A stretch of 64,000 bases of DNA from positions 114,514,001 to 114,578,000 of the forward strand of contig OZ024741.1 in NCBI GenBank assembly GCA_964016885.1, written 5' to 3'. The notes below the pieces were generated by a model. That model saw only the letters and a list, made by a program, of their open reading frames with translations. It made no database searches and was not told the DNA's origin. Made by a program: the position numbers and the translations under genes. Origin of the DNA: Eledone cirrhosa (lineage: Eukaryota). Shown here piece by piece: positions 4,874-30,436 of this stretch (positions are counted from its first letter, which is position 1; each line of letters begins with the position of its first letter).

Positions 4874-4913
4874 TAATAACAATAATAATAATAATAATAA
4901 TATTAATAATAAT
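4874..4913. repeat. (AAT)n tract shared as 3' end by the R4/Dong element (+) and Tx1 copy A (-)
   Basis: Direct reading of the sequence. Confidence 0.9.
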
Positions 4914-7798
4914 TTCCTTATTGGTCACAAGGGCTGACATATAGAGGAAATACAATAGACAGGAACAGTGTATGTGTTTGTGTGTGTGTGTGTGTGTGGG
5001 GGGGGGGGGTTAAAATGAAATCAATTAAAAAAATACAACAATAACAATAAACAAAATAATATCAACAATGAAAATTCCCCAATAGGAGGGAGGACCACAG
5101 AGGGGCGACTCAGGAACCCAATCAATCCTGAATCATCCAACGCTCTGAGGGCACCCCTCTCCTCTTCAAATCAGCCAGCCCAAATGCGCATGATCAGGTA
5201 GACCCATTCACTGGGACCATTCTCACAACATTCACCCACCTTTTAGCAAATGTACTAGGGGCTTTCCTCACCACCCTCACTGTGATAACGAGTCAGGTAT
5301 ATCTACATAAAACTCATAGGGCAGACCATCCAAACCAGGTGACACTTACTTCGTGCAGTTGACCAGGACATCCCGAATCTCGAGTGATGTTATCCTTTTT
5401 GCAGCACTCAGCATCGTCTAATTTAGCTGCCAGCTCGCCCTCCTTTCTATTTTTCTATAGCTACTTACCTATTGGAACTAGAGCACCCGACGACCTGTTG
5501 TTGATGACCCCCGCCCCGTTAACGTACACTTAACTAAGGTGGTGACCTGGTCCCTGTAGGCTTTATGCACTGGGTATGACATGTTTAGCTTCCAGGTCCT
5601 AGCCTAGGTTTATCATGCAGATCTCAAATTTCTGAATAAGTGACCGTTCGGAAATGTGGATGACCTATACTATACCTATCAACAAACCTATCTAAATACA
5701 ATCTAGATGATCCTGTGCAGTTGGTCTAGGCCCAACCGGGCACTGTCAGACAGTTTGAACTGGCTGATCAAGTACTTGAGGCTTTTGCACCCCTGTTCCT
5801 ATCAGCTACTCCCACATAATCCCAGCGTGCGTCTAAATAGCCATTCCAGCTACCTGTTATCCATAAAGGGCAAGACATTCCTAGAAAGGTTTCCAGGCAC
5901 CAAAAGAAATCCGGCCGTCTGGCCCCGGTAGGGGCGTAGATGGCCACAAGTATAAAAGCACCACCTTCGCTATTACTCACAACCAGGACCACCATATTAC
6001 TGTCTGGGTCCAGAAAGATCGTCCTTACCTCGAGATCCAGGCCTTTCCTAAAAAGCACTGTCACCCCACTTCCCATTCCAGGCCGATTAAGAGATGCGAA
6101 GATCTGATAGTCGTAAAAAATGGGGGCTAGTGCATGCATGTTGGAAATCTTGGTCACACTGACAGAAGTTACATCCATATCTAGTGACCTAAGGTCGTTC
6201 AGCAAGCGACCTTGCTTCCAGGACAGCCCCAGGCCTCAAACATTGAGACAACTCACTCTTATAATCGCTATGTTGGCTGGTTGATCAAAAGAGAAAAAAT
6301 GGGGTAGACGGAAACTATTTATCCTCTAGGCTCTGTTGGAAATCGGGTGGTTCGACCTCCCTGTCTGGTGGGTGTTCCTTTGGGAACACCTTTAACATTT
6401 TACATTTGGGGTTCCCACGTCTTACGGGAATCTGTCCCTAATGTTTTTATGGTTGAGGTGCCATTCGCACCATCATCAGAGATTGTGACACTTTGAATGT
6501 ACTGGTAGCAAAAATTTCTCCCCCTCTCTCAATCTCCTTACGTTGAGCTACAAGGGCCATCAGTTCTTGGTTGGCCCTTCTTATTAGCACAATGTTTGGT
6601 GTCTGTGTTATTAGTTGTAGTTGTGTGAGTTTTTGCTTGGGTGGTTGTGCTGGTTTTTGGTGTTGTGGTTCTGTTGCTGCTGTTGGTGGTGGTGCTGCTC
6701 TTGCTGGTGCTGGTGCTGCTGTTGATGTAGTTACTGCTACTGATGTTGGTGCCGCTAGTGTTGCCGTTCGCTGCTGGTGCAGTTGTTGAGCTACTTGTGT
6801 TTGCAGCAATGGGGCTTGGTTGTTTCCCGTCTTGTTCCCAAGCCAGTGTTCTCTCTAGGTGTGCCTGACTTCCAAGAGTGTGGCACTACCCTCTCATACT
6901 ACACAGGCTAGGACCCACTGGACGTTCAGTCCCGGCGGTATCCGTCGATTCTGACCCTTCTGTGGTACGAAGGGTATAGGAAGTATTGGTCTGTCAGAAT
7001 GGGGTCTACAGAGTGTTTGACAGCACTGACAGGGCTGCGTATTGCTTGGCTCTGGCAATATGCTCTATATCGGGCATTATGCCTTTCAGTGCCTTTTCGC
7101 ATTCACTTTGAGGTGCTACTTCTGACCGTCACGATTTTATTGTAACAGTTTTATATATTACAGTTTTCTTTTCTTTAGGCAACAGTACCTCGAGCAGCAT
7201 AGCTATTTCTGCTTTTGATTAATTGGGCGGCTTGAGCGAAGAGTTCGTCTTTCTTTAGGATGACCAGAACCAATAGTTCAGTGGCTTTTGCAGCTGTGGC
7301 TGCGAATGTAATTTTGTAATTGTTGTTGTTCCTGTTGCCGTTGCCGCTGCCGCCGCTGCGATGTCGACGCTGCTGCCGCTGGTGACGGTGGCGTTATTGT
7401 TGATATCTGTAATGGTGGTGACATCATTGTTGTTTCTCTCTAGAGCTCCATTCGAATTGCTTTCATGACACCCGCATTGTTTCGGGAATTTTCCCTCTTT
7501 GGCAGGAGTTGGAGAGGGGGGGGGGGGGATAACCTCCATTTTTCTTTTTTACAAACAAAATTGTATGGCATAATTTCAAATTTAAAGTTCATATATATAT
7601 GGGCCCAAGGCCCAAATATTATGAGTTGTCCCTTCTTCGGGGCAAAGACAAAAATCTTATGTCCCCTGTGTAACAAAAAAATTTAAACAAACAAAAAACA
7701 AAACAAAAACAAACCAAATAAACAAACAATATAAAAGGATGTACATAAACAAAACTTACGGAGTGTAAACAGGAGTGGCGTATCGGTCAGAGACAAGC
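4914..7798 (-). mobile_element. Tx1/L1-clade LINE copy A, decayed, most of RT deleted
   Basis: APE endonuclease remnant 5768-6270 (LNDLRSL, YAPTG.RPDFF). ORF1 remnants 6330-7540. SPGLDGLPYE remnant ~5315. 3' end CCCTTGTGACCAATAAGGAA(ATT)n. 5' end abuts a SINE's ATT tail. Confidence 0.85.
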
Positions 7799-9537: not shown

Positions 9538-10787
9538 CTGTAAAATAGATTTAAGAAAAATGTAGGATTTCAGAAAAAAAAAAACAATAAACAAAACAAG
9601 ACAATCACAGGTGTTCATGTAGTAAGGAACGTTTAACTCAGGAAATTTCATATAGGAACAAAGTATTTAACACATGCCTAAGTTAAAATATGCTCCAAAC
9701 CTAGATGCTCATCTGGTTGGGTTTTATCCTGGATTCATTAATGTTAAGTAACTGAGAATACAAGATACCCACTACAGAATTAACCACCATCTGTGGCTGG
9801 TACTTATCTTTTAAAACTGAGTGATTTGGAGCAACGGAAAATGAAATCTACTTCTAAGATAAAACAAATCACTTGGTTCACACTGAACACATAATTTTAT
9901 GACTATGGGCCTAACTCTTTACACTAGATCACACACCTTCACTCCTCCTGCCTTAATTTAATTTAGGAGATGTTCGTAACTCTCTTAAAAGATTTAGATG
10001 CTAAAAATCACATAAATGGTCATGTCCCTCTCCTCCTCATGATGGAGAGTCTGATGGTTGGTGTCAGGTTGTGACGTCAATGAGGTGAAGTATAAACTAA
10101 ACAGAGGTGAATGATCATGTAATCTGATGTTGACCACACGTTGTCTCAGATATGATGGCAGCAGGATGTTGTTGTTTAACCCAGCTCAACTATGATCAAA
10201 GACATAGCTACAACACCCTGACATTATTCAACGTGTCGTTTTTTTTAAAGGCAATAGAGTGGAATTTATGGGAGTTTTAGCTGCTAATTATAGCAGTCCC
10301 AGTGATCACACAGAGGCTCTCCTGCAGGATTTATCAGAAACACACATACTATAATGGGTTGTCTCTGGCACCACTTTATTTTATCAATCCTAAAAGAATG
10401 AGTGACAAAATTGTCTGTAGTGGGATATGAACTGGGAATGTAAAAACCGGAACAATTGTACTCGGACCCCGTACAGCCGAGCTCCTCCGCAAGATCGGAA
10501 CGCCGACGGCCCGTCTGAGGAAGGAGGTTGGGTAGCTGTTGCAGCGGGTGTCACTGGCCATTGTCCGCGGGAATGCTTTTGCTGTCTTGTTCACGGGACG
10601 CAGCACTTCTTCCTCCTTGCCCTAGGCCCAAAGTTCAATCACCCTACCCCTTCACACCTGCCCTCTCTTCTGCGATATCAGACTTCTAGACATCCCCTCC
10701 CCTTATCGTTCTTTTTTCTTTCTTTTTCTCTTTTTTCTCTATATTTCCCTATTCTTTTTTCTTTTGTTTCCTTTTCTTTTTATTATT

Positions 10788-10959
10788 ATGGCCCGAATGA
10801 ATGGGCCTTCTCTGAGTATGTGTCTGTAAATTAAAGGTGGAAAACTGGGAGAGGGCACTTGCCCTGGTGGTCAGGGCCACTGTGGTCTTTTAATGGGCTT
10901 TCTCCACAAATGTCCCTCGGAAGTCTCCCCCCTATTGGGGAATTTTTCTTTGTTATTTT
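10788..10959 (+). mobile_element. 172-bp 3'-terminal fragment of the Tx1 B/D family fused to the 5' end of copy B
   Basis: Near-identical to 16400-16571. Preceded by TTATTATT. Confidence 0.9.
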
Positions 10960-10971
10960 GCAGAGAGAAGA

Positions 10972-12986
10972 TTGTCTCTCTCCCCCCCTTCTTTAAATGT
11001 GTCTCTCTCCCTCCCTTCTCTTTCGCAAGTGACGAAAGAAAAGAAAAGTCTCGTGCAAAGCGTGCAAGATTTCTCCACGACGACGACGACAGCGACGAAA
11101 CAGGTGTGCGGGAAATACGAAAACCCAGTTCATTCGTCTGACGTCAGGAATAATAGCAGTAGCAGCCGTAATAACAACAGCAACAGTGACAATGAAAACA
11201 ACAGTAGCAGCCGCAACAGCATCACCAGCAGCATAAACAACAACAGCATTAGCAGCAGCAACACCAACAACAACCACAGCAACAGCGGCGGAGGCAATAG
11301 TCGTAGTACCTGCAGCAACAACAAAAGTACCAGCAGCTCTGACGACAACAACAACAGCAGCAGCAGCAGAGAGAAACCAATCTCATTTGCAGGTATTGCG
11401 AAAAACTTGGAAACAATCCTCATAACAAATGAGGAATTAGAGGAAGCGAAGAAGATGGTGACAAAGAATGGACACCGAGCAATCTGCAAGGCAGCGGAAA
11501 AATTTTTCGAAACCCAAGAGCACTGTACGGTCACGTACCGTACAGTAAGTACAAAATCCCGTAGGGTGGAAAGAGCCACAGAGGCCCAAATACAAAAAGC
11601 CTTGGGGTCTGTGTGGCAGCGGAAAACGCACATCACCCGAGGCAAAAAATATGCCACCGTAGACGTACTTTTTGCCACACCCCAGGAGGCAAAGGCCCAA
11701 TCAGTAGTGACCCTAAGGAGCGAGGAAATGGTGTTGGTGCCCTCCTACTGCGGGCAAAAAATTGTGAGGGTCAAACTGACCCACGTCCCCCCCGGAATGG
11801 CCCCTTCTTGGCTGGCCGCGTCTGTCCTCGTCGGAATCGAGGACAAAACAACTGTACTGCAAGTACAGAAAAAAGTAAGAGAAGATTGGGTCGGCACCTC
11901 CATTGAGATGCTAATCCAAACCAACCAGGAGTGCATCGAAGCTATCCCGGATGTGATAGACTTCGATAACGGCACTCAACTGCCCATAAGTGTTGAGGGC
12001 AAACGACCGAAATGCTTTCGCTGTGGATCGAAGACTCACCTCAGGGCCTTCTGCAACGAGAAGACCCTGAGAAAGGAGAAAACCCCCCTCCTTCCGAATC
12101 CGGCTCCACGGCTACCAGCAACAGGACAAGCGGCAACCAGGAACGATAGGTCCGTGGCACCCATACCCACGCCACGGAAATCAAAAACAGCAGCAGCAGT
12201 GGAAATATTAACAACAACAATAGCAATACCAAATGCAGCTGCAACAGAGACTCCAGTGCAAACATCACCAACAACAACAAGTGAAAGAGTGGAGCTGGTA
12301 CCCCTCCTCGACCTCACAGAATCAGACATGGAGTGTGAGGTGGGAGAGGGATGGCAAAAGGTCGTAAGAAGGCACAAACGCAGAAGCAGCGCATCGTCGC
12401 CTTTGAAAAGGGAGGAAAGAAATGAGAAAAGGGTAAAGTCTACTGCAAAGAGACCCACAGCAGCAACACCACCAACACCATCACCACCCACACTAGCACC
12501 ACTGGCGACAACCCCACCGCCAACAACACCTTCAACACCACCACCACAAGCACCAACATCGCAAACACAACAACAAAACACACACACACCCAGCAACAAC
12601 GACAAGAAAATAGCAGAACCACACCCCACCCCCAGAAAAACAAATGCACGGCAATAAATACACACAACAAGAAACTAATGACTTACATAATTGAACACAC
12701 AGACATTTCACAACAGGACTACATAATACCAGCACCAATCAAAACGCCAACTAACATAAGACTGCTAAAAATAGCACAGAAACAATACACAAACATTAAA
12801 ACGAAATTCCCCAACGCAGTTGGTGATTTCAGGGACCTAGGAGGAACCATCAATCGAAGAGTATATTCAGACATTCTCTTAGAAGAGCCGACGACCAGCC
12901 GAAGGGACGATTCAACGGTCCCTTCACCAGACGATCAAGTGAAAAGGGATGTAAAAACCATCCCTCCTCTACCAAAAGTACGGTAA
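10972..12986 (+). pseudogene. Tx1 ORF1 (gag-like, CCHC knuckle), 5'-truncated and frameshifted in a (CA)n run at ~12580
   Basis: CFRCGSKTHLRAFC knuckle. The continuous version exists in copy D (26998-29154). B has one extra CA. Confidence 0.9.
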
Positions 12987-13021
12987 GTGGTCTTTCCCAT
13001 CTTTTCCACTCTATTTTAAAC

Positions 13022-16000
13022 ATGACCTCACTCAGAATAGGCAGCATAAATGCGCGTGGCTTGGGGTCGTCATGGAAGCAGGGTCACCTGCTCAACGACC
13101 TCAGGTCACTAAACATAGATGTAGTGGCCATCAGCGAGACCAGAATCTCCGAAGCACGGGCCTTCGCACCGATCTTCGGCGGCTACGATGTGTACGCATC
13201 TCCCAGCCGTCCTGGATCGGGTGGAGGAGTTGCTGTGCTTTTTCGGAGAGGTTTGGATCTCGCCATACGGGCCATCTTCCTGGACCCAGAGGGTAAGCTG
13301 GTGGTGCTGGACGTGACCAGCGGAGACGGGCAAGCTTTCAGGCTAGTGGCCGTCTATGCCCCGACAGGAGCAGGGCGGCCTGATTTCTTCCGGCGTCTGG
13401 AGACCTTTCTTGGAACGTCCCGCTCTTTAGTGTTAGTGGGCGACTGGAACGGGATCTTAGATGCACGCTGGGACTGTGTGGGATTAGCGGATAGGGGTGG
13501 AGGGTGCAAGAGCCTCACCAACCTGCTCAGGCGTTTTGAACTGTCTGACAGGTACCGATTGGATTTCCCGAATGTGCCAATGTGGACTTGGACAAACCGC
13601 ATAGGGTCATCCAGATCATATCTAGATAGAGTATTTTGTAGGGAAATAGATAGGTCTATCATAGGCTGTCCACAATTCAAGATAGTCAGCTACACGGACC
13701 ACAAATTCGTGATCTGTGTGCTTGACTTAGATAGGCTTCATAGACGAGGAACCGGCTACTGGAAGCTAAACGCGTCCTTACCAGCGCGCAAGGCCTACAG
13801 AGACCGGATTAGCGAACTAGTTAAGCGGGCGTTGACGGGGGCCATCGTCAACAACAAGTGGTGGTTTGCTCTGAAAAGAGCGATTAGAATAGAATCGATT
13901 AGGTTTAGTAAGGCTTTAGCAATAGAGAAAAATAGAGCAGAGGGAGAACTAGTTAGAAAATTAGACGAGGCGCTTAGCAAAGGCATTGCGACCGACGTGC
14001 TTGCGGCGAAATTGGCCCTTGACCAATTCTTCAATGCAAAGCACGAAGGCTGCGTTGTCATAGCAAGGGTGCGTGCTCTCAGACACGAGGGGACGAAAGC
14101 CGTTCAATGGGCCCGAGTGGCGGAGGCGCGTCGTGGCAACAAAGCCACGATCCGGTCTTTGGTGGACCACGACGGGCGCATGCTACTCGATCCCGGGCAA
14201 ATGTGTGAAGTTTTTCAGCGACACTTCGCTCAGCTGTTCGGGGGCAGCGGTGGGCCGGGTAGAGGGATGGACTTTAGTGTCTACCTCGACGGACTGCCGC
14301 GGCTCTCGGCCACTGAGGCGAAGTGTTGCGAAAAGCCGATAACAGCCGCTGAAGTAAGGGAGGCAATGACTGGCTGCACAAGGGGTAAATCGCCTGGTTT
14401 GGATGGTCTGCCCTATGAACTTTACGTACAGATGCCAGAATTGTTCGGAGGCCTCTTGGCGGACGTCTACTGCAACTGGCAACAGAACGGGAGAATTCCC
14501 AGTTCTGTGAGCCGAGGAGCGGTGGCACTGCTGAGAAAGGATCCGAACAAGGGGGATAACATAGACAATTTCCGGCCCATAACTCTGCTAAACACAGAGT
14601 TCAAGATTTTGGCCAAGGTGCTAGCAAAGAGGTTGGCGCTTGTCGTTGGTGGTCTGGTGGGAGAGGCGCAAACATGCGCCATTCCCGACAGATCCATCCA
14701 CGACAACCTCCACCTCATGCGATACATCATAGAGAGGGTAGCTAAGGAACCTGGCACGGGTGGGTCCTTGATCAATTTAGATCAGTCGAAAGCTTTCGAT
14801 AGGGTCGACCATCGTTACCTAGCGGCAGTCCTGAGGGCGGCTGGCTTTGGGCCCGTCTTCAGAGGCAGGATCGCTGCCATGCACAGCGACATCTGCTCTG
14901 TGGTGAGAGTGAACGGTCACCTGTCGGAACCGTTCAACATCATGCGCTCGGTCCGCCAAGGATGTCCCCTCTCGTCCCTCTTGTACGTATTGACTCTCGA
15001 GCCATTACTGCACAAACTGGAGACGTTGAGGGGAGTCCCGCGCGAACTAGGATGCGGAAGATCCGTGTCAGCATATGCGGACGATGTCACCGTAGTGGTG
15101 TCGAACGCCAAACACATCGAGGCGATCGGCACTACACTAAGAGAATACGAAGCGGTGACAGGAGCAATGATCAACCAGGAAAAGTCAGTGGGCCTGCAGC
15201 TCGGCACCTGGAGAGGCAGGTCCATGCCGTCCAACAGCGTCGTCGGACACTGGACGGACGGACCGGTTAAATTGCTAGAGTTCTGGTTCGGTCCGGACCT
15301 CCAGACGGACAAAAACTGGGACGAGGTGACGAGCAGGGTGGCTTCTCTCACCCAGAAATGGGCGGAGAGGAAGCTATCCCTGAAAGGTCGAGCGGAGGTG
15401 GCTAACGCGTACATCGCTTCTGTCATCTGCTACCGCCTGACCGTCGTACCTTGTCCTAAGCCTCGCCTGACTGCGCTGGAGCGTTTGCTCTTTCGCTTTT
15501 TGTGGAAGGGACGTGCTCCGATGGTCAGGCGGTCCATCTGTTGTCAACACCCGCTACGTGGAGGGCTGGGCATGCCGTGGCTGATGATGCGCAGGCACGC
15601 GCTCAGGCTACGACATCTCCACCTCTTCCTCGACAGTGATCAGGTGTGGTCGCCGTTTGCTAGGCGCGTATTTCCCCAGCTCGTTTCCTTGACGGAGCTG
15701 CAGTCCTGGGTCAAGCGAAGACCGAGAGGGAGCGCCTGGAGACTGGAATGTCTTCAGGCGCTCACAGCCCTCGACCAATCGGGCAATGTGATCGGTGGAA
15801 ACTCCACCTCGGCGTTCTATAGAGGATTAGTGGAGGGTAAGAGCGACGACGTACTTGGGGAAACTCTAGGCGTCGACGAAAATCAACTAGCCAATCTCTT
15901 CGGAAGAACTTTCGGGCCGGGGCCTATGGACAACTTCCAGAAATCTCTGGCCCGGCAGTGCTACCGAGGAGCCTTGCCAGTTCGGGATAAACTCTACAGG

Positions 16001-16441
16001 CATGGAGGTGCCGTCAGCCGGGCTTGTCCGAGATGCGCGCAGGGCGACGAAACCGTCCTGCACGCACTCGTCCAGTGTCCGAAAATTGCTGACTTGTGGG
16101 TTTATGTCGAACACCTGCTGTCGCGTTTAGGACGGAGCCGGCTATCATCTGAGTCCATCGTGAGGATTGCCCCGCCCTCCTCCTTTAGCCGGGAAGGGCA
16201 GGCAGTTTTTATCTGTCTGGTGGCCATGGCGAAAGAGATAGTATGGTGGACACGTTTGAAAGGGCTGAAGACGAGCACTTACCTCTTCGGTGATGCTCTG
16301 ATTGACTTTTTCAAATTTCATTTGAAAAGGAAAATCAGAGTAGAGAGGGAAGTGCTCTCTTCCCAGCATTTTGTTGAAAGATGGTTGAGAGAAGCAAGAA
16401 TGGCCCGAGTGAATGGGCCTACTCTGAGTATATATCTGTAA
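13022..16441 (+). CDS. Tx1 ORF2: APE endonuclease + reverse transcriptase + C-terminal zinc finger, 1139 aa, uninterrupted
   Basis: SINARG, SET, YAP, GDWN, SYLDR, TDH (endonuclease). KSPGLDG, FRPITLLN, LDQSKAFD, QGCPLS, YADD (RT). CPRC...ETVLH...C (zinc finger). Confidence 0.97.
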   Translation: MTSLRIGSINARGLGSSWKQGHLLNDLRSLNIDVVAISETRISEARAFAPIFGGYDVYASPSRPGSGGGVAVLFRRGLDLAIRAIFLDPEGKLVVLDVTSGDGQAFRLVAVYAPTGAGRPDFFRRLETFLGTSRSLVLVGDWNGILDARWDCVGLADRGGGCKSLTNLLRRFELSDRYRLDFPNVPMWTWTNRIGSSRSYLDRVFCREIDRSIIGCPQFKIVSYTDHKFVICVLDLDRLHRRGTGYWKLNASLPARKAYRDRISELVKRALTGAIVNNKWWFALKRAIRIESIRFSKALAIEKNRAEGELVRKLDEALSKGIATDVLAAKLALDQFFNAKHEGCVVIARVRALRHEGTKAVQWARVAEARRGNKATIRSLVDHDGRMLLDPGQMCEVFQRHFAQLFGGSGGPGRGMDFSVYLDGLPRLSATEAKCCEKPITAAEVREAMTGCTRGKSPGLDGLPYELYVQMPELFGGLLADVYCNWQQNGRIPSSVSRGAVALLRKDPNKGDNIDNFRPITLLNTEFKILAKVLAKRLALVVGGLVGEAQTCAIPDRSIHDNLHLMRYIIERVAKEPGTGGSLINLDQSKAFDRVDHRYLAAVLRAAGFGPVFRGRIAAMHSDICSVVRVNGHLSEPFNIMRSVRQGCPLSSLLYVLTLEPLLHKLETLRGVPRELGCGRSVSAYADDVTVVVSNAKHIEAIGTTLREYEAVTGAMINQEKSVGLQLGTWRGRSMPSNSVVGHWTDGPVKLLEFWFGPDLQTDKNWDEVTSRVASLTQKWAERKLSLKGRAEVANAYIASVICYRLTVVPCPKPRLTALERLLFRFLWKGRAPMVRRSICCQHPLRGGLGMPWLMMRRHALRLRHLHLFLDSDQVWSPFARRVFPQLVSLTELQSWVKRRPRGSAWRLECLQALTALDQSGNVIGGNSTSAFYRGLVEGKSDDVLGETLGVDENQLANLFGRTFGPGPMDNFQKSLARQCYRGALPVRDKLYRHGGAVSRACPRCAQGDETVLHALVQCPKIADLWVYVEHLLSRLGRSRLSSESIVRIAPPSSFSREGQAVFICLVAMAKEIVWWTRLKGLKTSTYLFGDALIDFFKFHLKRKIRVEREVLSSQHFVERWLREARMARVNGPTLSIYL

Positions 16442-16938
16442 ATTAAAGGTGGAAAACTGGGAGAGGGCACTTGCCTTGGTGGTCAGGGTCACTGTGGCCT
16501 TTTACTGGGCTTTCTCCACAAATGTCCCTCCGAAGTCTCCCCCCTATTGGGGAATTTTTCATTGTTATTTTCATTGTTATTTTTTGTTACATCCTCTGTT
16601 TTTGTTTTTTACACGCAGAAATGCCCATTTGTACCGTCCTGCATTGTCCTGCACTGTCCTTAATGTCTACTTTATGTAAACCCTTGTGGTTAATAAAGAA
16701 ATCATTATTATCATTATTATTATTATTGACGAAAGTGGATGTACGTTTTTTGAAGCTCCGTGAGTAAGCAATTTTTTGAGGATTAATTCTGGAGAATTGT
16801 TTATTTTTTTGTACCGCTGAAGCATTATAAGACATTCATTTGTATCCTGTGAAGGAATAATTCATAATATTTGGGCCTTTTGGCCCAAATATTTCAACTT
16901 TATTTTGGAAAAATAATAATTTTTTTCCTCAAAAAAAC

Positions 16939-18855
16939 ATGGCGGAGCCACGCCCCCTAGAGGCAGGTCTGCTGTCGTGCAACGGCGACTTGAGCGTTGA
17001 GAGGAGAGGTGGGGCGAGGAGCGCCACCAGCACGAGTGTGAGCAGCGACAGTGCCAGCACCAACGGGCCGAGCGGCGCGGAAGGTGGTAACAGCGACAAC
17101 ACCAACACCAACAAGCCGAACAGCGTAGAAGGTGGTAATAGCGAGAGCACCAACAAAACGAACAGCACAGAGAGTAATAGTAGCGACAGCAGCAGCACCA
17201 ACAAGGCCAACAGCACAGAGGGTAACCACGACACAGGGGAGAACAACAACAGCAATAGCAGCAGCAACACCAACAAGAACAACAACAGTGACAACACCAA
17301 CAAGAACACCTTCGCTGCTGTGGCAGCGGCTAAAAGGAGACCATGCTACAGCATCGACTTAACCAACAGAGAGGAAAAGTTGGCCCAGGCCTGGAAAATC
17401 ATAAATCAAGAGCAGACGTGACCTGGGCAAACTTAACTGTCCCGGCAGAAGCCATTGAGGCAGTGGAAAAAAGAACGGTGCATTTCAGATGCATCTCAGT
17501 AGAGACAAAGAGGGCAGCGATAATCGCCCAAGCTGATATAGAAGCCGCACTGAAATACATCAGAGAGGACACAGACTTCATAGAGAGGGGCAGGCAATAC
17601 GGCACCGTTTCGGTGCTGTTCAAGTCTGAAGCCCTCGCTGTGAAGCATTCAATGACCCCTTGCAAAACCAGCAAGGTCATAATGTACCCCTCCCACATGG
17701 GAAAACGAATAGCACGTGTGCGCATTCCCAGGATTCCACCAGGACTTGATATGTGGTGGCTCCTGGGTTGCGTAATCGTGGAAGGAACGGATACAGTCCC
17801 GGTAGAGGAAACGAGAACTGCCAGGGACGACTGGTCCGGGGTTGATCTGGAGATACTGCTCCAAATCAGACCCGAAAACGTAAAAGCAATCCCGGACCAC
17901 ATCCGCCTCCAAAACGGGAGGGTGTTGCATATAATGACTGAGGGCAAAAGGCCGCATTGTTTCCTTTGTGGGGAAACGACACACTTGCGAGCCTTCTGCC
18001 CTCAACTGCCGAAAAGCGCAAGGGGTCGAAAGATTCCACTGCTGGCGACGCCGGGACAAGGACCACCAGCAACACCGTCAACAATGGAACCACCAAAATT
18101 GCACACCCAGGGGGGAAACGAGGAAAGCTCTCCCATTCCCCCTCCCCCCCCCCAAAATACACACACGAACAAGAACATAAACACTCACTCAGACACAAAC
18201 ACGCTCACAGCCACAGACCCCTCATCCTCCAGCAGTGAAGATGAGGGAAAACCAAAGTCCCCCAAAATACAAAAAACAAAACACAAAAAAAAGAAATCCA
18301 CAAAGCACAAACACCCCCACAAAAAAAAATACACACACGACCCACACAAACATTTTCCCCACAGCATCACCAACACAACCACCAAAATCCCCCAAACGCA
18401 AACAAGCTAAACAGACACAAGAACAAATAGACACACAAACATCAGAAACTACAGACACCACACCCACAACAAACGCAGACACAATAGAAACAACACTAAC
18501 AAAGCTATCACCACCACAATCACACGAACAAATAAAACCCGAGCAACAAAACATTAAAAACTTCGTGCTTGCCAGAAGGGCCAACAAGGAATTGATGGCC
18601 CATGTAGCACGAAGCACAAACATCGAAAAAGAGGGGGAAACATTTGAAGCGAGCACATTTCGCGTACCAGATAATTTGCTTCTGATGCGAATGTCGCTCG
18701 CTTCATACAAAGAAATTCGAAAGAGCTTTCCTCGGGATGTGGGAACCCCGAACGTAAAACCCACTTCAAGACTATTAAAGGGGTTCCCAAAAGAAACCCC
18801 ACAAACCATGGAGGTCGAACCACCCGACCTTCACAAGACCCCGGAAGGTAAGTAA
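16939..18855 (+). pseudogene. Copy C ORF1, two frameshifts
   Basis: Three overlapping frames. N/S-rich N-terminus, CFLCGETTHLRAFC knuckle, conserved C-terminal domain. Confidence 0.88.
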
Positions 18856-18884
18856 ACCTTTCCTCTCCCATTCATCCTGCCAGC

Positions 18885-21800
18885 ATGGCCATAAGAGTAG
18901 GAAGTTTAAATTTTCGTGGCCTGGGGTCGCCCTGGAAGCAAGGTCACTTACTCAACGACCTCAGGTCACTAGGAATGGATGTAATTGCCATCAGCGAGAC
19001 CAGAATTTCCGACACACGCGCACTGGCGCCGATTTTCGACGATTATCAGATCTTTGCATCTGTTAGTCGGCCGGGAATGGGAGGTGGAGTGGCTGTGCTG
19101 TTTAGGAAATGTCTGGATCTCGAGGTAAGGTCAATCTTCCGGGATCCTGACGGAAAGTTGGTGGTCCTGGACGTGAGCAATAGCGAAAGTGGTGCCTTTA
19201 GACTGGTGGCCGTCTACGCCCCTACTGGGGCCGGTCGGCCGGACTTCTTTAGGCGCCTGGAAAACTTTCTGCTTACGTCTCGCCCTTTACTGTTAATAGG
19301 GGATTGGAATGGCATCTTAGAAGCACGCTGGGATTGTGTGGGAGTATCTGATAGGAGCGGGGGGTGCAAAAGCCTCAAGTACCTGATCAGCCAGTTTCAA
19401 CTGTCTGACAGGTACCGACTAGATTTCCCTAATGCGCCAGTATGGACCTGGACCAATCGCATAGGGTCATCTAGATCGTACATAGATAGGATTTTCATTA
19501 GGAAAAGAGATAGAAATAGTGTAGGATGTCCACATTTTAAAACGGTTGCCTATTCAGATCACAAGCTTGTGATCTGTATGGTCGACCTAGATAAGACACG
19601 TAGGTTAGGACCTAGCTACTGGAAGCTAAACATGTCGTTTCCGGCACGTAAAGCTTACAGGGACCGGGTCAACAACTTAGTTAAGCAAAAGTTGACATGG
19701 GGGGGGGTTGTCAACAACAGGTGGTGGGGGGGCTCTCAAAAGAGAGATTAGAGCAACCTCGATAGGATTTAGCAAAGAAGTAGCAATAGAGAAAAATAGA
19801 AAGGAGGAGGGGCTGATAGCTAAGTTAGACGAGGCTATTTGTAGTGGCATTGCAACAGACGTGCTAGCGGCGAGAATGGCACTAGACCATTTCTTCAATG
19901 CGAAATACGAAGGTTGCATTGTCAGAGCTAAGGCGCGTGCTCTGAGGAACGAGGGAACCAAAGCTGCCCGATGGGCTCGCTTTGCAGAGACGCAGCGTGG
20001 AAATAAAACCACAATTCGGTCTTTGACGGATCGAGATGGACACGAACTGAGCGATTCCAAGCAGATGTGTGAGGCCTTTCGCCAGCACTTTGCTCGATTG
20101 TTCGGGAGGATGGGTGAGTCGGAGACGGCGGCGGACTTCAGTCCCTACCTCGACGGCTTGCCACGCCTCTCGACGGCCGACGCTGAGCGCTGCGAAGAGC
20201 CGATAACATCAGTCGAAATTCAGGACGCCCTTGTCGGCTGCTCGAGTCGCAAGTCACCCGGTTTGGATGGTCTGCCCTACGAGCTTTACGTAAATATGCC
20301 AGACTTGTTCTCCGATCTCCTCGAAGCGCTCTACTGCAACTGGCAGCAGAACGGGAGCATTCCCAGTTCTGTGAGCCGTGGCGTAGTGACGCTGATAAGG
20401 AAAGACGAGAACAAGAGGGACACACTAGATAATTTCAGGCCCATAACCCTGCTCAACACAGAGTTTAAGATTTTGGCCAAGGTGTTAGCGAAAAGGTTGG
20501 CGCTTGTAGTCAAAGATTTGGTTGGGGAGGCGCAAACTTGCACAATCCCGACCAGGTCCATATACGACAACCTCCACCTCATGCGATACATCATAGAGAG
20601 GGTTGGGTGCAAACCTGGCTTCGGTGGGGCTCTGATCAATTTAGATCAATCGAAAGCATTCGATAGGGTCGACCATCGGTACTTGGAGGCTGTCCTCGAG
20701 GCGGCTGGCTTCGGCCCCGTCTTCAGAAGCTGGATCGCTGCAATGTACAGCGGCATCTGCTCGGTGGTCAAAGTTAATGGCCACCTCTCGGAACCGTTTC
20801 AGATCTCTCGATCGGTCCGTCAAGGGTGCCCTCTCTCCTCACTTCTGTACGTATTGACTCTTGAGCCTCTACTGCGGAAGCTGGAGTTGTTGCAGGGCAT
20901 CCCACTCGAACCGGGACGTAGAAAGGCTGCGTCCGCTTATGCGGACGACATCACCGTGATGGTGTCGGACACCTCGGAAATCGAGGTGATCCGCACCCAT
21001 TTGGAGGAATATGAAAGGTTGACGGGAGCAAAACTTAACCCGGAAAAGTCGGTGGGCTTGCAGCTCGGCACCTGGAGAGGCAAGTCCATGCCGTCCAACA
21101 GCGTCGTTGGGCGCTGGACAGACGGACCGGTAAAGTTGCTCGGGGTTTGGTTCGGACCAGACCTCCAGGTGGATAAGAATTGGGACGAGGTGACGAGCAG
21201 GATAGCCAACCTCACCCAGAAATGGGCTGAGAGAAAGCTATCACTGAAAGGGCGGGCGGAGGTGGCGAACGCGTACATCGCGTCCATCATCTACTACCGC
21301 CTGACCGTCGTGCCTTGCCCCCGTCCACGCCTCGCCAATTTGGAACTGCTCCTTTTCAAATTTTTGTGGAGGGGACGGGTCCCGTTGGTGAGGCGGTCCA
21401 TCTGCTGCCAGCACCCGCTTCGTGGAGGGCTGGGCATGCCGTGGCTAATGATGCGCAGACATGCGCTGAGGCTGCGACATCTCCAGATATTTTGCCTAAA
21501 CGGTGAACAGGTGTGGTCGCCGTTTGTTAGACGGGCCTTTCCGCAGCTCATCTCTTTGACTGAGCTGCAGTCCTGGGTCAAGAAGAGACCGAGACTGGGC
21601 GACTGGCATCTGGAATGTTGCCAGGCGCTCACTGTACTCTGCAAGGTGGGCAATGCGGTCAGTGGAACTTCCACTCAAGATTTCTATAGAGGATTAGTGG
21701 AGGGCAAGTACGATGACGTACTAGGAGAGGCTCTAGGCGTCAACGAAGTAGAACTGACCAGTATGTTCCGGAGGACTTTCGAGCCGGGGACGATGGATAA

Positions 21801-22308
21801 CTTCCAGAAATCCCTCGCTTGGCAGTGCTACCGGGGGGCGCTGCCGGTTCGGGATGAACTCTACAGGCACGGAAGTGCTGTCAGACGAACCTGCCCGAGA
21901 TGCGCGCAGAGCGACGAAACCGTTCTGCACGCACTCGTCCAGTGTCCGTGCATTGCTGACTTGTGGGGTTATGTCGAACAGCTATTGTCGCGTGTAGAAC
22001 GGATCCGGCTATCGTCCGAGTCCATAGTGAAGATTGACCCGCCGCCTTCTTTTCGTCAGGAAGGGCAGGCAATTTTCCTCTGCCTGGTGGCAGTAGCGAA
22101 AGAGGTTGCATGGTGGACCAAGTTGAAAGGACTGAAGACAGACACTTTTCTCTTCGGCCAATCCCTCATCAACTTCTTCAAGTTTCACTTGGAAAGGAAG
22201 GTGAGGGTGGAGAGAGAAGTGCTGCCCCCCAGTACATTTACTGAAAGGTGGGTGAATGTGGCGAGAATGGCCCGCGTGAGTGGGCCTACTCTGATCATGC
22301 GCCTGTAG
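18885..22308 (+). pseudogene. Copy C ORF2 (EN-RT-zf), frameshifted at the G-runs near 19700-19735
   Basis: The 288-aa EN ORF and the 866-aa RT ORF (YADD) overlap at homopolymer runs, so this may be an assembly error. Confidence 0.92.
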
Positions 22309-22575
22309 GCTGGTGAATTCGAGAAGGAGAGGGGTGCCGTTCCCGGGTGCCATAGGAGCGTCGGGTGGCTCAGGACTGGTGGGGTGCTTGAGTCAACTCT
22401 GGGTGGTGATCCCTCTTATTGGGGAACTTTCATTGTTGTATTTTTATTGTTATTTTGTTTTTTGTTATTTATACTTACTCGATCTCTATGTAAACCCCCA
22501 CTGTCCCTGTCTATTGTGTTGTCCCCTATATGTCGGCCCTTGTGGCCAATAAATGAAATCATTATTATTATTATT

Positions 22576-22772
22576 AACATTTTCATTTTCATTGTTTATA
22601 TATATATGTTTCTATGTCTTTTTCTTTTCTTATATAAATAATAAAAATCTTTACACGCACAAAACCCACATCGTACCGTCCTGTACCGTCCTGTACCGTC
22701 CTGTGCCGTCTGTAATATTTTTCTTGATGTCAGCTCTTGTGGCCAATAAAGAAATCATCATTATTATTATTA
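22576..22772 (+). mobile_element. 3'-UTR-only Tx1 fragment with its own AATAAA and (ATT)n tail
   Basis: TTTACACGCA.AAA, (GTACCGTCCT)x3 and CTTGTGGCCAATAAAGAAATC match the 3' UTR of B. Confidence 0.85.
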
Positions 22773-22778
22773 CTGTAA

Positions 22779-22951
22779 GGCAGTATCGGTAGAGGGTTGG
22801 AAGCCATGCTTTCTAGCATAGTTACGCCCCTTTACGGTCTGAGTTCAAATCCCGTCGAGGTTAACTTTGCCTTTCATCCTTATGGGGTCGATAAAATAAA
22901 GTACCAGTAATGTACTGGGTAATTGCTGGCCTTGTGCCAAAAGTAGAAACA
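22779..22951 (+). mobile_element. SINE family 1 with a ~19-bp target-site duplication
   Basis: ATTATTATTATTACTGTAA at 22760-22778 and at 22952-22970. Confidence 0.9.
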
Positions 22952-23275: not shown

Positions 23276-23311
<36 letters not shown>

Positions 23312-23559
23312 TTTCTTTATTAACCACAAGGGTTTACATAAAGTAGACATTAAGGACAGTGCAGGACAATACAGTACGGTACAAATGGGCATTTCTGCGT
23401 GTAAAAAACAAAAACAGAGGATGTAACAAAAAATAACAACGAAAAATTCCCCAATAGGGGGGAGACTTCGGAGGGACATTTGTGGAGAAAGCCCAGTAAA
23501 AGGCCACAGTGACCCTGACCACCAAGGCAAGTGCCCTCTCCCAGTTTTCCACCTTTAAT

Positions 23560-26500
23560 TTACAGATATATACTCAGAGTAGGCCCATTCACTCGGGCCA
23601 TTCTTGCTTCTCTCACCCATCTTTCAACAAAATGCTGGGAAGTGAGCACTTCCCTCTCTACTCTGATTTCCCTTTTCAAATGAAATTTGAAAAAGTCAAT
23701 CAGAGCATCACCGAAGAGGTAAGTGCTCGTCTTCAGCCCTTTCAAACATGTCCACCATACTATCTCTTTCGCCATGGCCACCAGACAGATAAAAACAGCC
23801 TGCCCTTCCAAGCTAAAGGAGGAGGGCGGGGCAATCCTCACGATGGACTCAGATGATAGCCGGATCCGTCCTAAACGCGACAGCAGGTGTTCGACATAAA
23901 CCCACAAGTCAACAATGCTGGACGAGTGCGTGCAGGACGGTTTCGTCGCCCTGCGCGCATCTCGGACATGCCCGGCTGACGGCACCTCCATACCTGTAGA
24001 GTTTATCCCGAACTGGCAAGGCTCCTCCGTAGCACTGCCAGGCCAGAGATTTCTGGAAGTTGTCCATAGGCCCTGGCCCGAAAGTTCTTCCGAAGAGATT
24101 GGCTAGTTGATTTTCGTCGACGCCTAGAGTTTCCCCAAGTACGTCGTCGCTCTTCCCCTCCACTAATCCTCTATAGAACGCCGAGGTGGAGTTTCCACCG
24201 ATCACATTACCCGATTGGTCGAGGGCTGCGAGCGCCTGAAGACATTCCAGTCTCCAGGCGCTCCCTCTCGGTCTTCGCTTGACTCTGGACTGCAGCTCCG
24301 TCAAGGAAACGAGCTGGGGAAATACGTGTCTAGCAAACGGCGACCACACCTGATCACCGTCGAGGAAGAGGTGGAGATGTCGTAGCCTGAGCGCGTGCCT
24401 GCGCATCATCAGCCACGGCATGCCCAGCCCTCCACGTAGCGGGTGTTGACAACAGATGGACCGCCTGACCATCGGAGCGCGTCCCTTCCACAAAAAACGA
24501 AAGAGCAAACGCTCCAGCGCAGTCAGGCGAGGCTTAGGACAAGGTACGACGGTCAGGCGGTAGCAGATGACAGACGCGATGTACGCGTTAGCCACCTCCG
24601 CTCGACCTTTCAGGGATAGCTTCTCCTCCGCCCATTTCTAGGTGAGAGAAGCCACCCTGCTCGTCACCTCGTCCCAGTTTTTGTCCGTCTGGAGGTCCGG
24701 ACCGAACCAGACCCCTAGCAATTTAACCGGTCCGTCCGTCCAGCGTCCGACGACACTGTTGGACGGCATGGACCTGCCTCTCCAGGTGCCGAGCTGCAGG
24801 CCCACTGACTTTTCCTGGTTGATCATTGCTCCTGTCACCGCTTCGTATTCTCTTAGTGTAGTGCCGATCGCCTCGATGTGTTTGGCGTTCGACACCACTA
24901 CGGTGACATCGTCCGCATATGCTGACACGGATCTTCCGCATCCTAGTTCGCGCGGGATGCCCCTCAACGTCTCCAGTTTATGCAGTAATGGCTCGAGAGT
25001 CAATACGTACAAGAGGGACGAGAGGGGACATCCTTGGCGGACCGAGCGCATGATGTTGAACGGTTCCGACAGGTGACCGTTCACTCTCACCACAGAGCAG
25101 ATGTCGCTGTGCATGGCAGCGATCCAGCCTCTGAAGACGGGTCCAAAGCCAGCCGCCCTCAGGACTGCCGCTAGGTAACGATGGTCGACCCTATCGAAAG
25201 CTTTCTGACTGATCTAAATTGATCAAGGACCCACCCGTGCCAGGTTCCCTAGCTACCCTCTCTATGATGTATCGCATGAGGTGGAGGTTGTCGTGGATGG
25301 ATCTGTCGGGAATGGCGCATGTCTGCGCCTCTCCCACCAGACCACCAACGACAAGCGCCAACCTCTTTGCTAGCACCTTCGCCCAAATCTTGAACTCTGT
25401 GTTTAGCAGAGTTATGGGCCTGAAATTATCTATGTTATCCCCCTTGTTCGGATCCTTTCTCAGCAGTGCCACCGCTCCTCGGCTCACAGAACTGGGAATT
25501 CTCCCGTTTTGTTGCCAGTTGCAGTAGACGTCCGCCAAGAGGCCTCCGAACAAGTCTGGCATCTGTACGTAAAGTTCATAGGGCAGACCATCCAAACCAG
25601 GCGATTTACCCCTTGTGCAGCCAGTCATTGCCTCCCTTACTTCAGCGGCTGTTATCAGCTTTTCGCAACACTTCGCCTCAGTGGCCGAGAGCCGCGGCAG
25701 TCCGTCGAGGTAGACACTAAAGTCCATCCCTCTACCCGGCCCACCGCTGCCCCCGAACAGCTGAGCGAAGTGTCGCTGAAAAGCTTCACACATTTGCCCG
25801 GGATCGAGTAGCATGCGTCCGTCGTGGTCCACCAAAGAGCGGATCGTGGCTTTGTTGCCACGACGCGCCTCCGCCACTCGGGCCCATTGAACGGCTTTCG
25901 TCCCCTCGTGTCTGAGAGCACGCACCCTTGCTCTGACAACGCAGCCTTCGTGCTTTGCATTGAAGAATTGGTCAAGGGCCAATTTCGCCGCAAGCACGTC
26001 GGTCGCAATGCCTTTGCTAAGCGCCTCGTCTAATTTTCTAACTAGTTCTCCCTCTGCTCTATTTTTCTCTATTGCTAAAGCCTTACTAAACCTAATGGAT
26101 TCTATTCTAATCGCTCTTTTCAGAGCAAACCACCACTTGTTGTTGACGATGGCCCCCGTCAACGCCCGCTTAACTAGTTCGCTAATCCGGTCTCTGTAGG
26201 CCTTGCGCGCTGGTAAGGACGCGTTTAGCTTCCAGTAGCCGGGTCCTCGTCTATGAAGCCTATCTAAGTCAAGCACACAGATCACGAATTTGTGGTCCGT
26301 GTAGCTGACTATCTTGAATTGTGGACAGCCTATGCTAGACCTATCTATTTCCCTACAAAATACTCTATCTAGATATGATCTGGATGACCCTATGCAATTT
26401 GTCCAAGTCCACATTGGCACATTCGGGAAATCCAATCGGTACCTGTCAGACAGTTCAAAACGCCTGAGCAGGTTGGTGAGGCTCTTGCACCCTCCACCCC

Positions 26501-26962
26501 TATCCGCTAAACCCACTCAGTCCCAGCGTGCATCTAAGATCCCGTTCCAGTCGCCCACTAACACTAAGGTCCAAGAAAGGTCTCCAGACGCCGGAAGAAA
26601 TCATGCCGCTCTGCTCCTGTCGGGGCATAGACGGCCACTAGCCTGAAAGCTTGCCCGTCTCCGCTGGTCACGTCCAGCACCACCAGCTTACCCTCTGGGT
26701 CCAGGAAGATGGCCCGTATGGCGAGATCCAAACCTCTCCGAAAAAGCACAGCAACTCCTCCACCCGATCCAGGACGGCTGGGAGATGCGTACACATCGTA
26801 GCCACCGAAGATCGGTGCGAAGGCCCGTGCGTCGGAGATTCTGGTCTCGCTGATGGCCACTACATCTATGTTTAGTGAGCTGAGGTCGTTGAGCAGGTGA
26901 CCCTGCTTCCATGACGACCCCAAGCCACGCGCATTTATGCTGCCTATTCTGAGTGAGGTCAT
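23560..26962 (-). pseudogene. Copy D ORF2, several frameshifts and stops
   Basis: Five ORF pieces (132, 441, 158, 228 and 143 aa) collinear with B ORF2. Confidence 0.93.
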
Positions 26963-26997
26963 GTTTAAAATAGAGTGGAAAAGATGGGAAAGACCAC

Positions 26998-29154
26998 TTA
27001 CCGTACTTTTGGTAGAGGAGGGATGGTTTTTACATCCCTTTTCACTTGATCGTCTGGTGAAGGGACCGTTGAATCGTCCCTTCGGCTGATCGTCGGCTCT
27101 TCTATGATTATGTCCGAATATACTCTTCGATTGATAGTTCCTCCTAGGTCCCTGAAATCACCAACTACGTTGGGGAATTTCGTTTTAATGTTTGTGTATT
27201 GTTTCTGTGCTATTTTTAGCAGTCTTACGTTAGTTGGTGTTTTGATTGGTGCTGGTATTATGTAGTCGTGTTGTGAAATGTCTGCGTGTTCAATTATGTA
27301 AGTCATTAGTTTCTTGTTGTGTGTATTTATTGCTGTGCATTTGTTTTTCTGGGGGTGGGGTGTGGTTCTGCTATTTTCTTGTCGTTGTTGCTGGGTGTGT
27401 GTGTTTTGTTGTTGTGTTTGCGATGTTGGTGCTTGTGGTGGTGGTGTTGAAGGTGTTGTTGGCGGTGGGGTTGTCGCCGGTGGTGATGGTGGTGCTAGTG
27501 TGGGTGGTGATGGTGTTGGTGGTGTTGCTGATGTGAGTCTCTTTGCAGTAGACTCTACCCGTTTCTCATTTCTTTCCTCCCTTTTCAAAGGCGACGATGC
27601 GCTGCTTCTGCTTTTGTGCCTTCTTACGACCTTTTGCCATCCCTCTCCCACCTCACACTCCATGTCTGATTCTGTGAGGTCGGGGAGGGGTACCAGCTCC
27701 ACTCTTTCACTTGTTGTTGTTGGTGATGTTTGCACTGGAGTCTCTGTTGCAGCTGCATTTGGTATTGCTGTTGTTGTTGTTAATATTTCCACTGCTGCTG
27801 CTGTTTTTGATTTCCGTGGCGTGTGTATGGGTGCCACGGACCTATCGTTCCTGGTTGCCGCTTGTCCTGTTGCTGGTAGCCGTGGAGCCGGTTTCGGAAG
27901 AAGGGGGGTTTTCTCCTTTCTCAGGGTCTTCTCGTTGCAGAAGGCCCTGAGGTGAGTCTTCGATCCACAGCGAAAGCATTTCGGGCGTTTGCCCTCGACA
28001 CTTATGGGCAGTTGAGTGCCGTTATCGAAGTCTATCACATCCGGGATAGCTTCGATGCACTCCTGGTTGGTTTGGATTAGCATCTCAATGGAGGTGCCGA
28101 CCCAATCTTCTCTTACTTTTTTCTGTACTTGCAGTACAGTTGTTTTGTCCTCGATTCCGACGAGGACAGACGCGGCCAGCCAAGAAGCGGCCATCCCTGG
28201 GGGTACGTGGGTCAGTTTGACCCTTACAATTTTTTGCCCGCAGTAGGAGGGCACCAACACAATTTCCTCGCTCCTTAGGGTCACTACTGATTGAGCATTT
28301 GCCTCCTGGGGTGTGGCAAAAAGTACGTCTACGGTGGCATATTTTTTGCCTCGGGTGATGTGCGTTTTCCGCTGCCACACAGACCCCAAGGCTTTTTGTA
28401 TTTGAGCCTCTGTGGCTCTTTCCACCCTACGGGATTTTGTACTTACTGTACGATACGTGACCGCACAGTGCTGTTGGGTTTCGAAAAAATTTTCCGCTGC
28501 CTTGCAGATTGCTCGGTGTCCAGTCTTTGTTACCATCTTCTTCGCTTCCTCTAATTCCTCATTTGTTATGAGGATTGTTTCCAGGTTTTTCGCAATACCT
28601 GCAAATGAGATTGGTTTTTCTTTGCTTCTGTTGTTGTTGTTGTCGTCAGAGCTGCTGTTACTTTTGTTGTTGCTGCAGGTACTACGACTACTGCCTCCGC
28701 CGCTGTTGCTGTGGTTGTTGTTGGTGTTGCTGCTGCTAATGCTGTTGTTGTTTATGCTGCTGGTGATGCTGTTGCGGCTGCTACTGTTGTTTTCATTGTC
28801 ACTGTTGCTGTTGTTATTACGGCTGCTACTGCTATTATTCCTGACGTCAGACGAATGAAATGGGTTTTCGTATTTCCCGCACACCTGTTTCGCCGTTGTC
28901 GTGGAGAAATCTTGTACGCTTTGCACGAGACTTTTCTTTTCTGTCTTCGCTTGCGAAAGAGAAGGGAGGGAGAGAGACACATTTAAAGAAGGGAGGGAGA
29001 GAGACACACTTAAAGAAGGGAGGGAGAGAGACAATCTTCTCTCTGCCGTAGTGATGATTGAGGAAGAAGAAGACGGAATGAGTGGGAGTGACCTATGAAA
29101 CTTCTTTTTCGTAGCCATGTTGTTTTTTTTGTTTAAAATAAATATTGGGCACAA
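26998..29154 (-). CDS. Copy D ORF1, uninterrupted (probable start MATKK at ~29118)
   Basis: 718-aa ORF: N/S-rich region, central folded region, CX2CX4HX4C knuckle, P/T-rich linker, C-terminal domain. Confidence 0.92.
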   Translation of the reverse strand: MCPIFILNKKNNMATKKKFHRSLPLIPSSSSSIITTAERRLSLSLPSLSVSLSLPSLNVSLSLPSLSQAKTEKKSLVQSVQDFSTTTAKQVCGKYENPFHSSDVRNNSSSSRNNNSNSDNENNSSSRNSITSSINNNSISSSNTNNNHSNSGGGSSRSTCSNNKSNSSSDDNNNNRSKEKPISFAGIAKNLETILITNEELEEAKKMVTKTGHRAICKAAENFFETQQHCAVTYRTVSTKSRRVERATEAQIQKALGSVWQRKTHITRGKKYATVDVLFATPQEANAQSVVTLRSEEIVLVPSYCGQKIVRVKLTHVPPGMAASWLAASVLVGIEDKTTVLQVQKKVREDWVGTSIEMLIQTNQECIEAIPDVIDFDNGTQLPISVEGKRPKCFRCGSKTHLRAFCNEKTLRKEKTPLLPKPAPRLPATGQAATRNDRSVAPIHTPRKSKTAAAVEILTTTTAIPNAAATETPVQTSPTTTSERVELVPLPDLTESDMECEVGEGWQKVVRRHKSRSSASSPLKREERNEKRVESTAKRLTSATPPTPSPPTLAPPSPPATTPPPTTPSTPPPQAPTSQTQQQNTHTQQQRQENSRTTPHPQKNKCTAINTHNKKLMTYIIEHADISQHDYIIPAPIKTPTNVRLLKIAQKQYTNIKTKFPNVVGDFRDLGGTINRRVYSDIIIEEPTISRRDDSTVPSPDDQVKRDVKTIPPLPKVR

Positions 29155-29334
29155 AACCCCAATAAGCAGTTATTTAACCCCGAAGGGCCAAATAACGGGC
29201 AGAAAGACCCCTCTCACGAGGAGGAGGGTGTTTTTGTCTACAAGTTCGTTAAAGTTTTAAACAATTTACAATTGTTATAGCGTTAAAAATTTACAATACC
29301 TTACAGAGCCGAGCCTCCGTCAACCATAGCATTC

Positions 29335-30333: not shown

Positions 30334-30436
30334 TTAATGATAAACGCTAATCTAACCATCATAGAATTAATGAATATGAATAGAAACATTAATACCACAA
30401 GGCTAAATAACATTATATATGCATAAACCAAAAATA

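Follow-up and report, generated by a model that had tools for sequence, protein, structure and literature searches.

L1/Tx1-type LINE copies in the window (the whole 64-kb stretch of DNA analysed here) were found to carry a 5' splice site at a short and nearly fixed distance from their 5' ends, in first exons that are otherwise unrelated. An earlier note had read the motif as a splice donor, and its recurrence in a distantly related, array-forming group supports a donor signal under selection. On balance, we favor the interpretation that the donor belongs to a short, weakly spliced 5'-UTR intron and also binds U1 near the cap, with transposition proceeding from the unspliced RNA.

Self-comparison and tblastn identified six related LINE copies in the window, A to F. 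Copies B (10961..16727), C (16728..22576) and F (47262..52842) lie on the plus strand, and A (about 4874..7798), D (about 23280..29334, immediately following the (ATT)n tail of E) and E lie on the minus strand. A is a decayed copy of 2.9 kb with internal deletions, E is 5'-truncated, and B, which is 97% identical to D and has an intact ORF2 (EN, RT and zf-RVT), is without a leader; leaders are present in A, C, D and F. RT identity is 69-81% between B and F or C. In ORF2, the Pfam domains Exo_endo_phos and RVT_1 scored above the cut-off, as did zf-RVT (28.1 vs 27.5), and the closest solved structure is human L1 ORF2p (E 3e-51), with R2 at 2e-21. With an APE endonuclease, a reverse transcriptase and a C-terminal zinc finger in ORF2, the copies are L1/Tx1-type non-LTR retrotransposons. 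A zf-CCHC domain was detected in the ORF1 of F only, with a score below the Pfam cut-off; the look-alikes of ORF1 in the Atlas (0.91-0.93) are CCHC and ZCCHC3-type clusters, and the sequence search with ORF1 returned zero homologues. Copies A, B, C, D and E sit or end in (ATT)n and F lies in a SINE-like repeat; the Tx1 label, which is that of the earlier note, fits this target preference. The SINE sequence suggests an octopus-like host, and thirteen L1-Tx1 families are described as recently active in O. vulgaris (PMC13282606). For F, a 13-nt target duplication inside the SINE-like repeat, with its two copies at 47249-47261 and 52843-52855, defines the 5' end. In A, C and D the element begins after an (ATT)n run, so that its first base is uncertain by a few bases; the first base after the ATT run is a G in all three and may be a copied cap.

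Several further features were observed around these copies. At the head of B (10788-10972), 172 nt of the ORF2 end and 3' UTR of its own family are joined to early ORF1, which looks like a template switch or a deletion between tandem copies. Behind the tail of C (22577-22772) lies an additional short 3'-terminal fragment from a related family, with its own AATAAA and an ATT run beside a SINE, and a different RT-bearing element, 24% identical to the ORF2 of B, lies at 2431-4512 on the plus strand. Among sequencing-run contigs aligned to 16400-30400 (4 of 6 runs), the 15 joints examined out of 3930 all lie in the SINE at about 22780-22960. Depth in run X1 at C-specific sites (16837-22398) is alike at the leader and the 3' UTR, with values of about 1800-4100, a hint that most copies of the C family are full-length. 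In run X4, which is not on record as RNA, C-family contig depths were about 20 (17194-17687), 197 (17676-18263), 191 (18299-18833), 21 (18804-19379) and 348 (22398); these were not used as evidence because contig depth cannot rank gene parts. One high-depth contig of that run begins at 17676, with an AG directly upstream and an in-frame ATG 6 nt further on; this start may mark either an alternative acceptor or a truncated copy.

In the four leaders, the splice-donor consensus was located at the coordinates and offsets that the earlier note had given: TCC|GTGAGT in C (G at 16760, 32 nt in), TCC|GTAAGT in A (7759, minus strand, 39 nt in), TCT|GTAAGG in D (29304, minus strand, 30 nt in) and CTG|GTGAGT in F (47299, 37 nt in). 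The note had claimed the motif for every full-length copy; it is present in 4/4 copies with a leader, the leaderless B and the truncated E falling outside these, but the description of A as full-length does not hold. The motif GT[AG]AG[TG] has a frequency of 0.0010 per site in the window, giving a naive P of about 8e-6 for its presence within 60 nt in 4/4 leaders; because it was picked post hoc and the families are related, this P measures conservation rather than four independent events. Dinucleotide shuffles of the first 200 nt had the motif in the first 60 nt in 1.8-3.3% of cases, depending on the leader, and shuffles of the first 60 nt alone had it in 1.6-9.6%. The leaders had also been described as otherwise dissimilar. 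This is true of the first exons, for which 6/6 pairs aligned no better than shuffles (49-276 of 300 as good), but not of the sequence farther downstream, where 4/6 pairs beat at least 292 of 300 shuffles; the aligning stretch lies 60-170 nt past the donor, and a hairpin array is common to all four.

The complementarity to U1 expected of a U2-type 5' splice site was evident when 15 leader examples were scored with a U1 5' end taken from locus L076: the donor was the best U1 match among the 9-22 GT sites of its leader in 13 and the second best in 2. The T-rich stretch claimed behind each donor was also seen, the 52 nt behind the donor containing 38-81% T and, in 10/15 examples, no AG.

An independent test was provided by relatives found in a scan of prokaryote assemblies, where 37 of 39 loci are tandem arrays on 16 contigs of one bacterial MAG (loci L040-L075 and L078; contigs CAXXMW010000002-18, except 15). 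These contigs are apparently eukaryotic contamination of the MAG, consisting of host-type DNA. Compared with the window copies, the array elements are 40-41% identical in ORF2 and 50-52% in the RT domain. The arrays consist of mostly intact Tx1-like LINEs in head-to-tail units of 6.4-6.9 kb, of which one contig contains at least 11. Successive units are not separated by poly(A), and several leader and ORF1 types occur on near-identical ORF2s; the family is unusual in being self-targeting or array-forming. Because the ORF2s are nearly identical and the leaders related, we count the array families as about two lineages rather than eleven. In a quick-method RT tree with unnamed rows, the window copies and the arrays formed one clade (support 97), within which the window group, the array group and family c12 form a three-way polytomy. 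Viral contig scans yielded no relatives, and the metagenome scan yielded 39 loci, mostly at 22-39% identity.

The donor was frequently observed at the junctions of the array units. Among the 60 junctions examined, 36 (the first group) carry AAAA|GTAAGT 50-64 nt after the previous AATAAA, 14 (the second group) carry a GTAAGA donor 99-129 nt after it, 3 belong to family c12 and are without a leader donor, and 7 are truncated units or array ends. Intact array leaders therefore contain a donor in 50/53 cases, and the array exon-1 ends are joined to GTAAG in 54/54. From the 17-20 nt of 3' tail that follow AATAAA at truncated units and array ends, the 36 first-group donors lie 32-47 nt from the 5' end, and in two array-first copies, measured against flanking DNA, the donor is 33 and 37 nt in. 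This matches the 30-39 nt of the window copies. Second-group donors lie about 85-120 nt in. The motif is not general to Tx1/L1 elements, given that c12 is without it and that distant L1-clade loci are not enriched for it: there it occurs within 300 nt of ORF1 in 4/13 (12 usable ORF1 starts plus L076), near chance. The same locus L076, a 27% relative, begins right behind a complete U1 snRNA gene and has a second U1-like copy downstream (3036-3199 and 9961-10137), making it a candidate U1-headed or U1-targeting element.

We found that a potential acceptor can be placed behind each window donor, just ahead of the hairpin array. In C, a predicted 32-nt exon 1 (16728..16759), which begins with the G just after (ATT)n and contains a 4-codon upstream ORF, is followed by a predicted 63-nt intron (16760..16822) running from GTGAGT through T-rich sequence to a weak AAG acceptor; other AGs of this leader are at 16794, which is 35 nt from the donor, and at 16854. 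The C donor is predicted to be paired in a local hairpin (unpaired 0.21). The predicted exon 1 of A (7760..7798, minus strand, 39 nt) is followed by a 94-nt intron (7666..7759), GTAAGT...TTTTTTTGTTACACAG, whose CAG is the sole AG from 20 nt past the donor onward. D has a predicted 30-nt exon 1 (29305..29334, minus strand) with two ATGs, at offsets 2 and 7, and a 67-nt intron (29238..29304), GTAAGG...CTTGTAG; in F, behind the target duplication in the SINE-like repeat, the corresponding segments measure 37 nt (47262..47298) and 68 nt (47299..47366, GTGAGT...TTTTGTAG, ending in TAG). Removal of the predicted introns would change the ORF1 ATG offsets from 211, 216, 219 and 259 to 148, 149, 151 and 165 nt. 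The hairpin array, which in C extends with an A-run to the ORF1 ATG at 16939 (16823..16941, z -4.06), is more stable than shuffles in all four leaders (z -2.4 to -4.1), and the exon-plus-intron part folds like shuffles (z -0.6 to 0.3). Covariation in the leader hairpins, with 15/500 shuffles as good on 4 sequences, is only suggestive.

Acceptors in the arrays are more uneven. All five second-group examples have a long T-tract and a YAG|G 175-197 nt after the donor, so that a YAG is found in A, D, F and 5/5 of these, with AAG in C; in 4/5 the donor is paired with an anti-donor strand (unpaired probability 0-0.02). The commonest first-group leader has no YAG between donor and ORF1 ATG (17/35 scored junctions), only an AAG at 65-67 nt. 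Types c13 and c16 have TAG at 64 nt, and three other first-group types have no AG ahead of a GAG at 104-150 nt. No intron-less, spliced copies were seen among the window copies and array loci; the two ORF2 deletion ends examined in A are neither of them GT..AG.

On these observations, the most probable mechanism is the following. Transcription would start at the 5' end of the element, and U1 snRNP, judging from the complementarity, would bind the leader donor near the cap and aid early elongation, export or translation. Part of the RNA would lose the short leader intron, and splicing would be kept inefficient, through a poor acceptor in some families and through a donor-masking hairpin in others. 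Reverse transcription would use the unspliced RNA, the spliced RNA would serve mainly as ORF1 message, and intron-less copies would not spread owing to a loss of leader sequence or of expression. Several points count against this reading. The acceptor is less well kept than the donor, as the AAG and the earlier AG at 35 nt in C illustrate; the exon bases preceding the donors match the consensus poorly (TCC, TCT, AAA); the leader donor is missing from c12, a member of the clade; not all donors are masked, with unpaired values of 0.58 in A and 0.51 in X; and the donor in the human L1 5' UTR is ascribed to an overlapping RUNX3 DNA site (PMC5860796).

Since the acceptor is less conserved than the donor, the main rival is a U1 landing site that guards early elongation and suppresses premature 3' end formation while being hardly ever spliced, to which we give a minor share of the probability. 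The donor position is kept while most first-group array leaders have missing or poor acceptors; in mammalian cells, a cap-near 5' splice site is described as blocking Restrictor without splicing, more so nearer the start (PMC12211998), and U1 at the donor of the Arabidopsis element EVD as suppressing premature termination (PMC5580714). The number of A(A/T)TAAA signals between the leader and the end of ORF1, 2-5 in first-group and 0-2 in second-group array types, points weakly in the same direction, these being related sequences. However, a textbook acceptor is kept in five second-group leaders and a positional AG in the window leaders, a masked donor would be a poor anchor, and the donor-less c12 has two A(A/T)TAAA signals and still forms arrays. 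Protection from premature polyadenylation by the leader donor would also be weakly placed, as C, D and F have their first sense-strand A(A/T)TAAA 1.1-2.0 kb into the element. Of the alternatives that had been listed beforehand, a 5'-UTR intron and a U1 anchor fit best.

Conservation of the motif as DNA, as a TF site or a downstream core-promoter element that resembles a donor by chance, is unlikely. DPEs are spacing-strict, whereas the distance of the motif from the 5' end ranges over 30-47 nt and up to about 85-120 nt. The short DPE consensus is RGWYV at about +28 to +32; a longer form and its position are given in PMC1636488. RGWYV was found in 0/4 leaders at the DPE position and nowhere between positions 20 and 45 in 4/4, so that the internal promoter motif listed in the earlier note fails, in its DPE-like version, on both sequence and spacing. 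The position does resemble that of Drosophila LINE downstream promoter elements at +29 to +36 (PMC1636488), and the RUNX3 site containing the human L1 donor offers a parallel, in that its mutation cuts RNA to about 18% (PMC5860796). Yet the positions shared between the leaders here are the U1-pairing ones only, and further instances of the motif lie at the ORF1 stop and, for the array elements, past the stop of ORF2.

The recurrence at the ORF1 stop bears on the suggestion that the leader donor is spliced to the CAG just before ORF2, giving an ORF2-only mRNA. In C, a second donor, AAG|GTAAGT, in the ORF1 stop region is followed by a pyrimidine tract and this CAG (18848..18884), with the ORF2 ATG at 18885. 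F has GAG|GTGAGT, a tract, a CAG ending at 49494 and the ORF2 ATG (49461..49504), and A has a tract and CAG behind a decayed donor position, GAG G|ATAAAT (6276..6322, minus strand). In B (ACG|GTAAGT and tract, 12983..13024, ORF2 ATG at 13022) and in D (26960..27001, minus strand), there is no AG between the tract and the ATG. In B, C, D and F, this second donor and the region of the ORF1 stop overlap. The donor is also present after the ORF1 stop in 46/48 array units, 14 nt before the ORF2 ATG, with neither tract nor AG between; c12 lacks it as well, its ORF1 and ORF2 overlapping as TAATG. The inter-ORF tract is predicted to pair with the ORF2-stop region in 5/5 copies (-32.7 to -41.6 kcal/mol; 0-2 of 300 shuffles as good), for C with 22290..22345 (-37.9 kcal/mol, 0/300), and the region of the same copy is the best or tied partner; in B/D and F the predicted helix takes in the second donor. 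This pairing gives the tract an explanation other than that of a splice acceptor.

An ORF2-only mRNA is accordingly improbable. In its favor are the tract and CAG ahead of ORF2 in A, C and F, the translatable SpORF2 RNA described for human L1 (PMC2896524), and the junction, made by hand, of D exon 1 with the first AG inside ORF2 (26948), which puts the ATG at offset 7 in frame; an in-frame ATG, however, often arises by chance when there are two. Against it stand the missing AG in B/D and in the array units, the pairing of the tract and the position of the CAG, just 34-46 nt behind the second donor. Copies lacking exactly ORF1, which the model would lead one to look for, were not seen among the window copies and array loci. 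An ORF1-ORF2 fusion through the second donor was also considered and rejected as a general rule: joining to the first AG would keep the frame in B/D, F and A but lose it in C, and introns of 34-36 nt would be implied in C and F. A candidate 3'-UTR acceptor, TACACGCAG, was set aside as present in B, D and E only.

That the motif arose by chance, or that a spliced-leader or snRNA gene supplied the head of the elements, is very improbable, for although the motif was picked post hoc and each window element has 4-9 sense-strand matches to GT[AG]AG[TG], it was replicated in a second lineage, and the first exons have no common sequence, contrary to borrowing, with zero Rfam matches in the window (no ribozyme or snRNA in the leader).

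The weakly spliced 5'-UTR intron may, more tentatively, be one part of a wider splicing programme, in which the cap-near leader intron is combined with an ORF1-stop donor able to remove all of ORF2, and the anti-donor hairpins and the 3.4-kb RNA zipper would act as switches. If so, a single transcript would yield two products, an ORF1-only message after complete splicing and, when left unspliced, the RNA used for ORF2 and for transposition, an arrangement that would be retrovirus- or copia-like and kept across two hosts at 52% RT identity. A third donor lies just behind the ORF2 stop in 12/12 array examples, c12 included (e.g. L048, 5053-5300), with a T/C-rich TAG about 235-260 nt past it in 11/12, and the two form a candidate 3'-UTR intron.

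Comparisons with known systems point to Penelope of Drosophila virilis, whose 5' intron can be considered the closest precedent. It is described as a 75-bp intron 46 bp from the start, retained in the element, removed from the majority of transcripts, and required for protein rather than RNA production (PMC2377424). As in the reading favored here, that intron is short, near the start and kept through transposition, with splice sites conserved in a diverged relative; spliced and unspliced Penelope RNAs are both present, whereas the Tx1 leader introns are predicted from sequence (PMC2377424). Penelope is, however, a GIY-YIG retroelement of another class, for which intron retention is treated as a class mark (PMC2377424). 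The window elements have two ORFs and an APE endonuclease instead of a single ORF with RT and GIY-YIG, so that they resemble Penelope in function alone. A conserved donor (G98U99) is likewise present in the human L1 5' UTR, and spliced L1 copies (SpIREs) are reported as dead ends; that donor is 97 nt in, a by-product of the RUNX3 site, with acceptors hundreds of bases off (PMC5860796). The donors here, in contrast, are cap-near, have an intron-like tract behind them and are conserved across unalignable first exons. The L1 SpORF2 RNA is the model behind the ORF2-only idea (PMC2896524), but the acceptor before ORF2 is not conserved in the present elements.

In the Arabidopsis Ty1/Copia element EVD, the shGAG donor is described as serving both splicing and U1 protection of the full-length RNA and, as here, is better conserved than its acceptor; EVD is, unlike the present elements, an LTR element, with an intron in the coding region that is coupled to early termination (PMC5580714). 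The Tx1 elements Kibi and Koshi share the ORF2 with EN, RT and zinc finger and insertion in simple repeats, but they target microsatellites, against (ATT)n or a SINE-like repeat here, and the available text of PMC4494074 mentions no leader intron. The parts available of PMC5203782 and PMC2911113 contain nothing relevant to a leader donor. A spliced-leader- or snRNA-headed Tx1 element is not what the unrelated first exons indicate. In the open literature searched, we found no report of a Tx1 leader intron or donor.

LINEs are copied from RNA, so introns are expected to be lost, and splice sites in L1 are regarded as a liability. A donor whose short distance from the cap stays constant, in a first exon that is otherwise replaced over time, is noteworthy in an intron-poor retroelement of 6 kb. 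These results suggest that this lineage relies on U1 and splicing both to make its RNA look like normal mRNA and to balance the outputs of ORF1 and ORF2. If this is true, intron retention, which has been thought typical of Penelope-like elements, would extend to L1/Tx1 LINEs.
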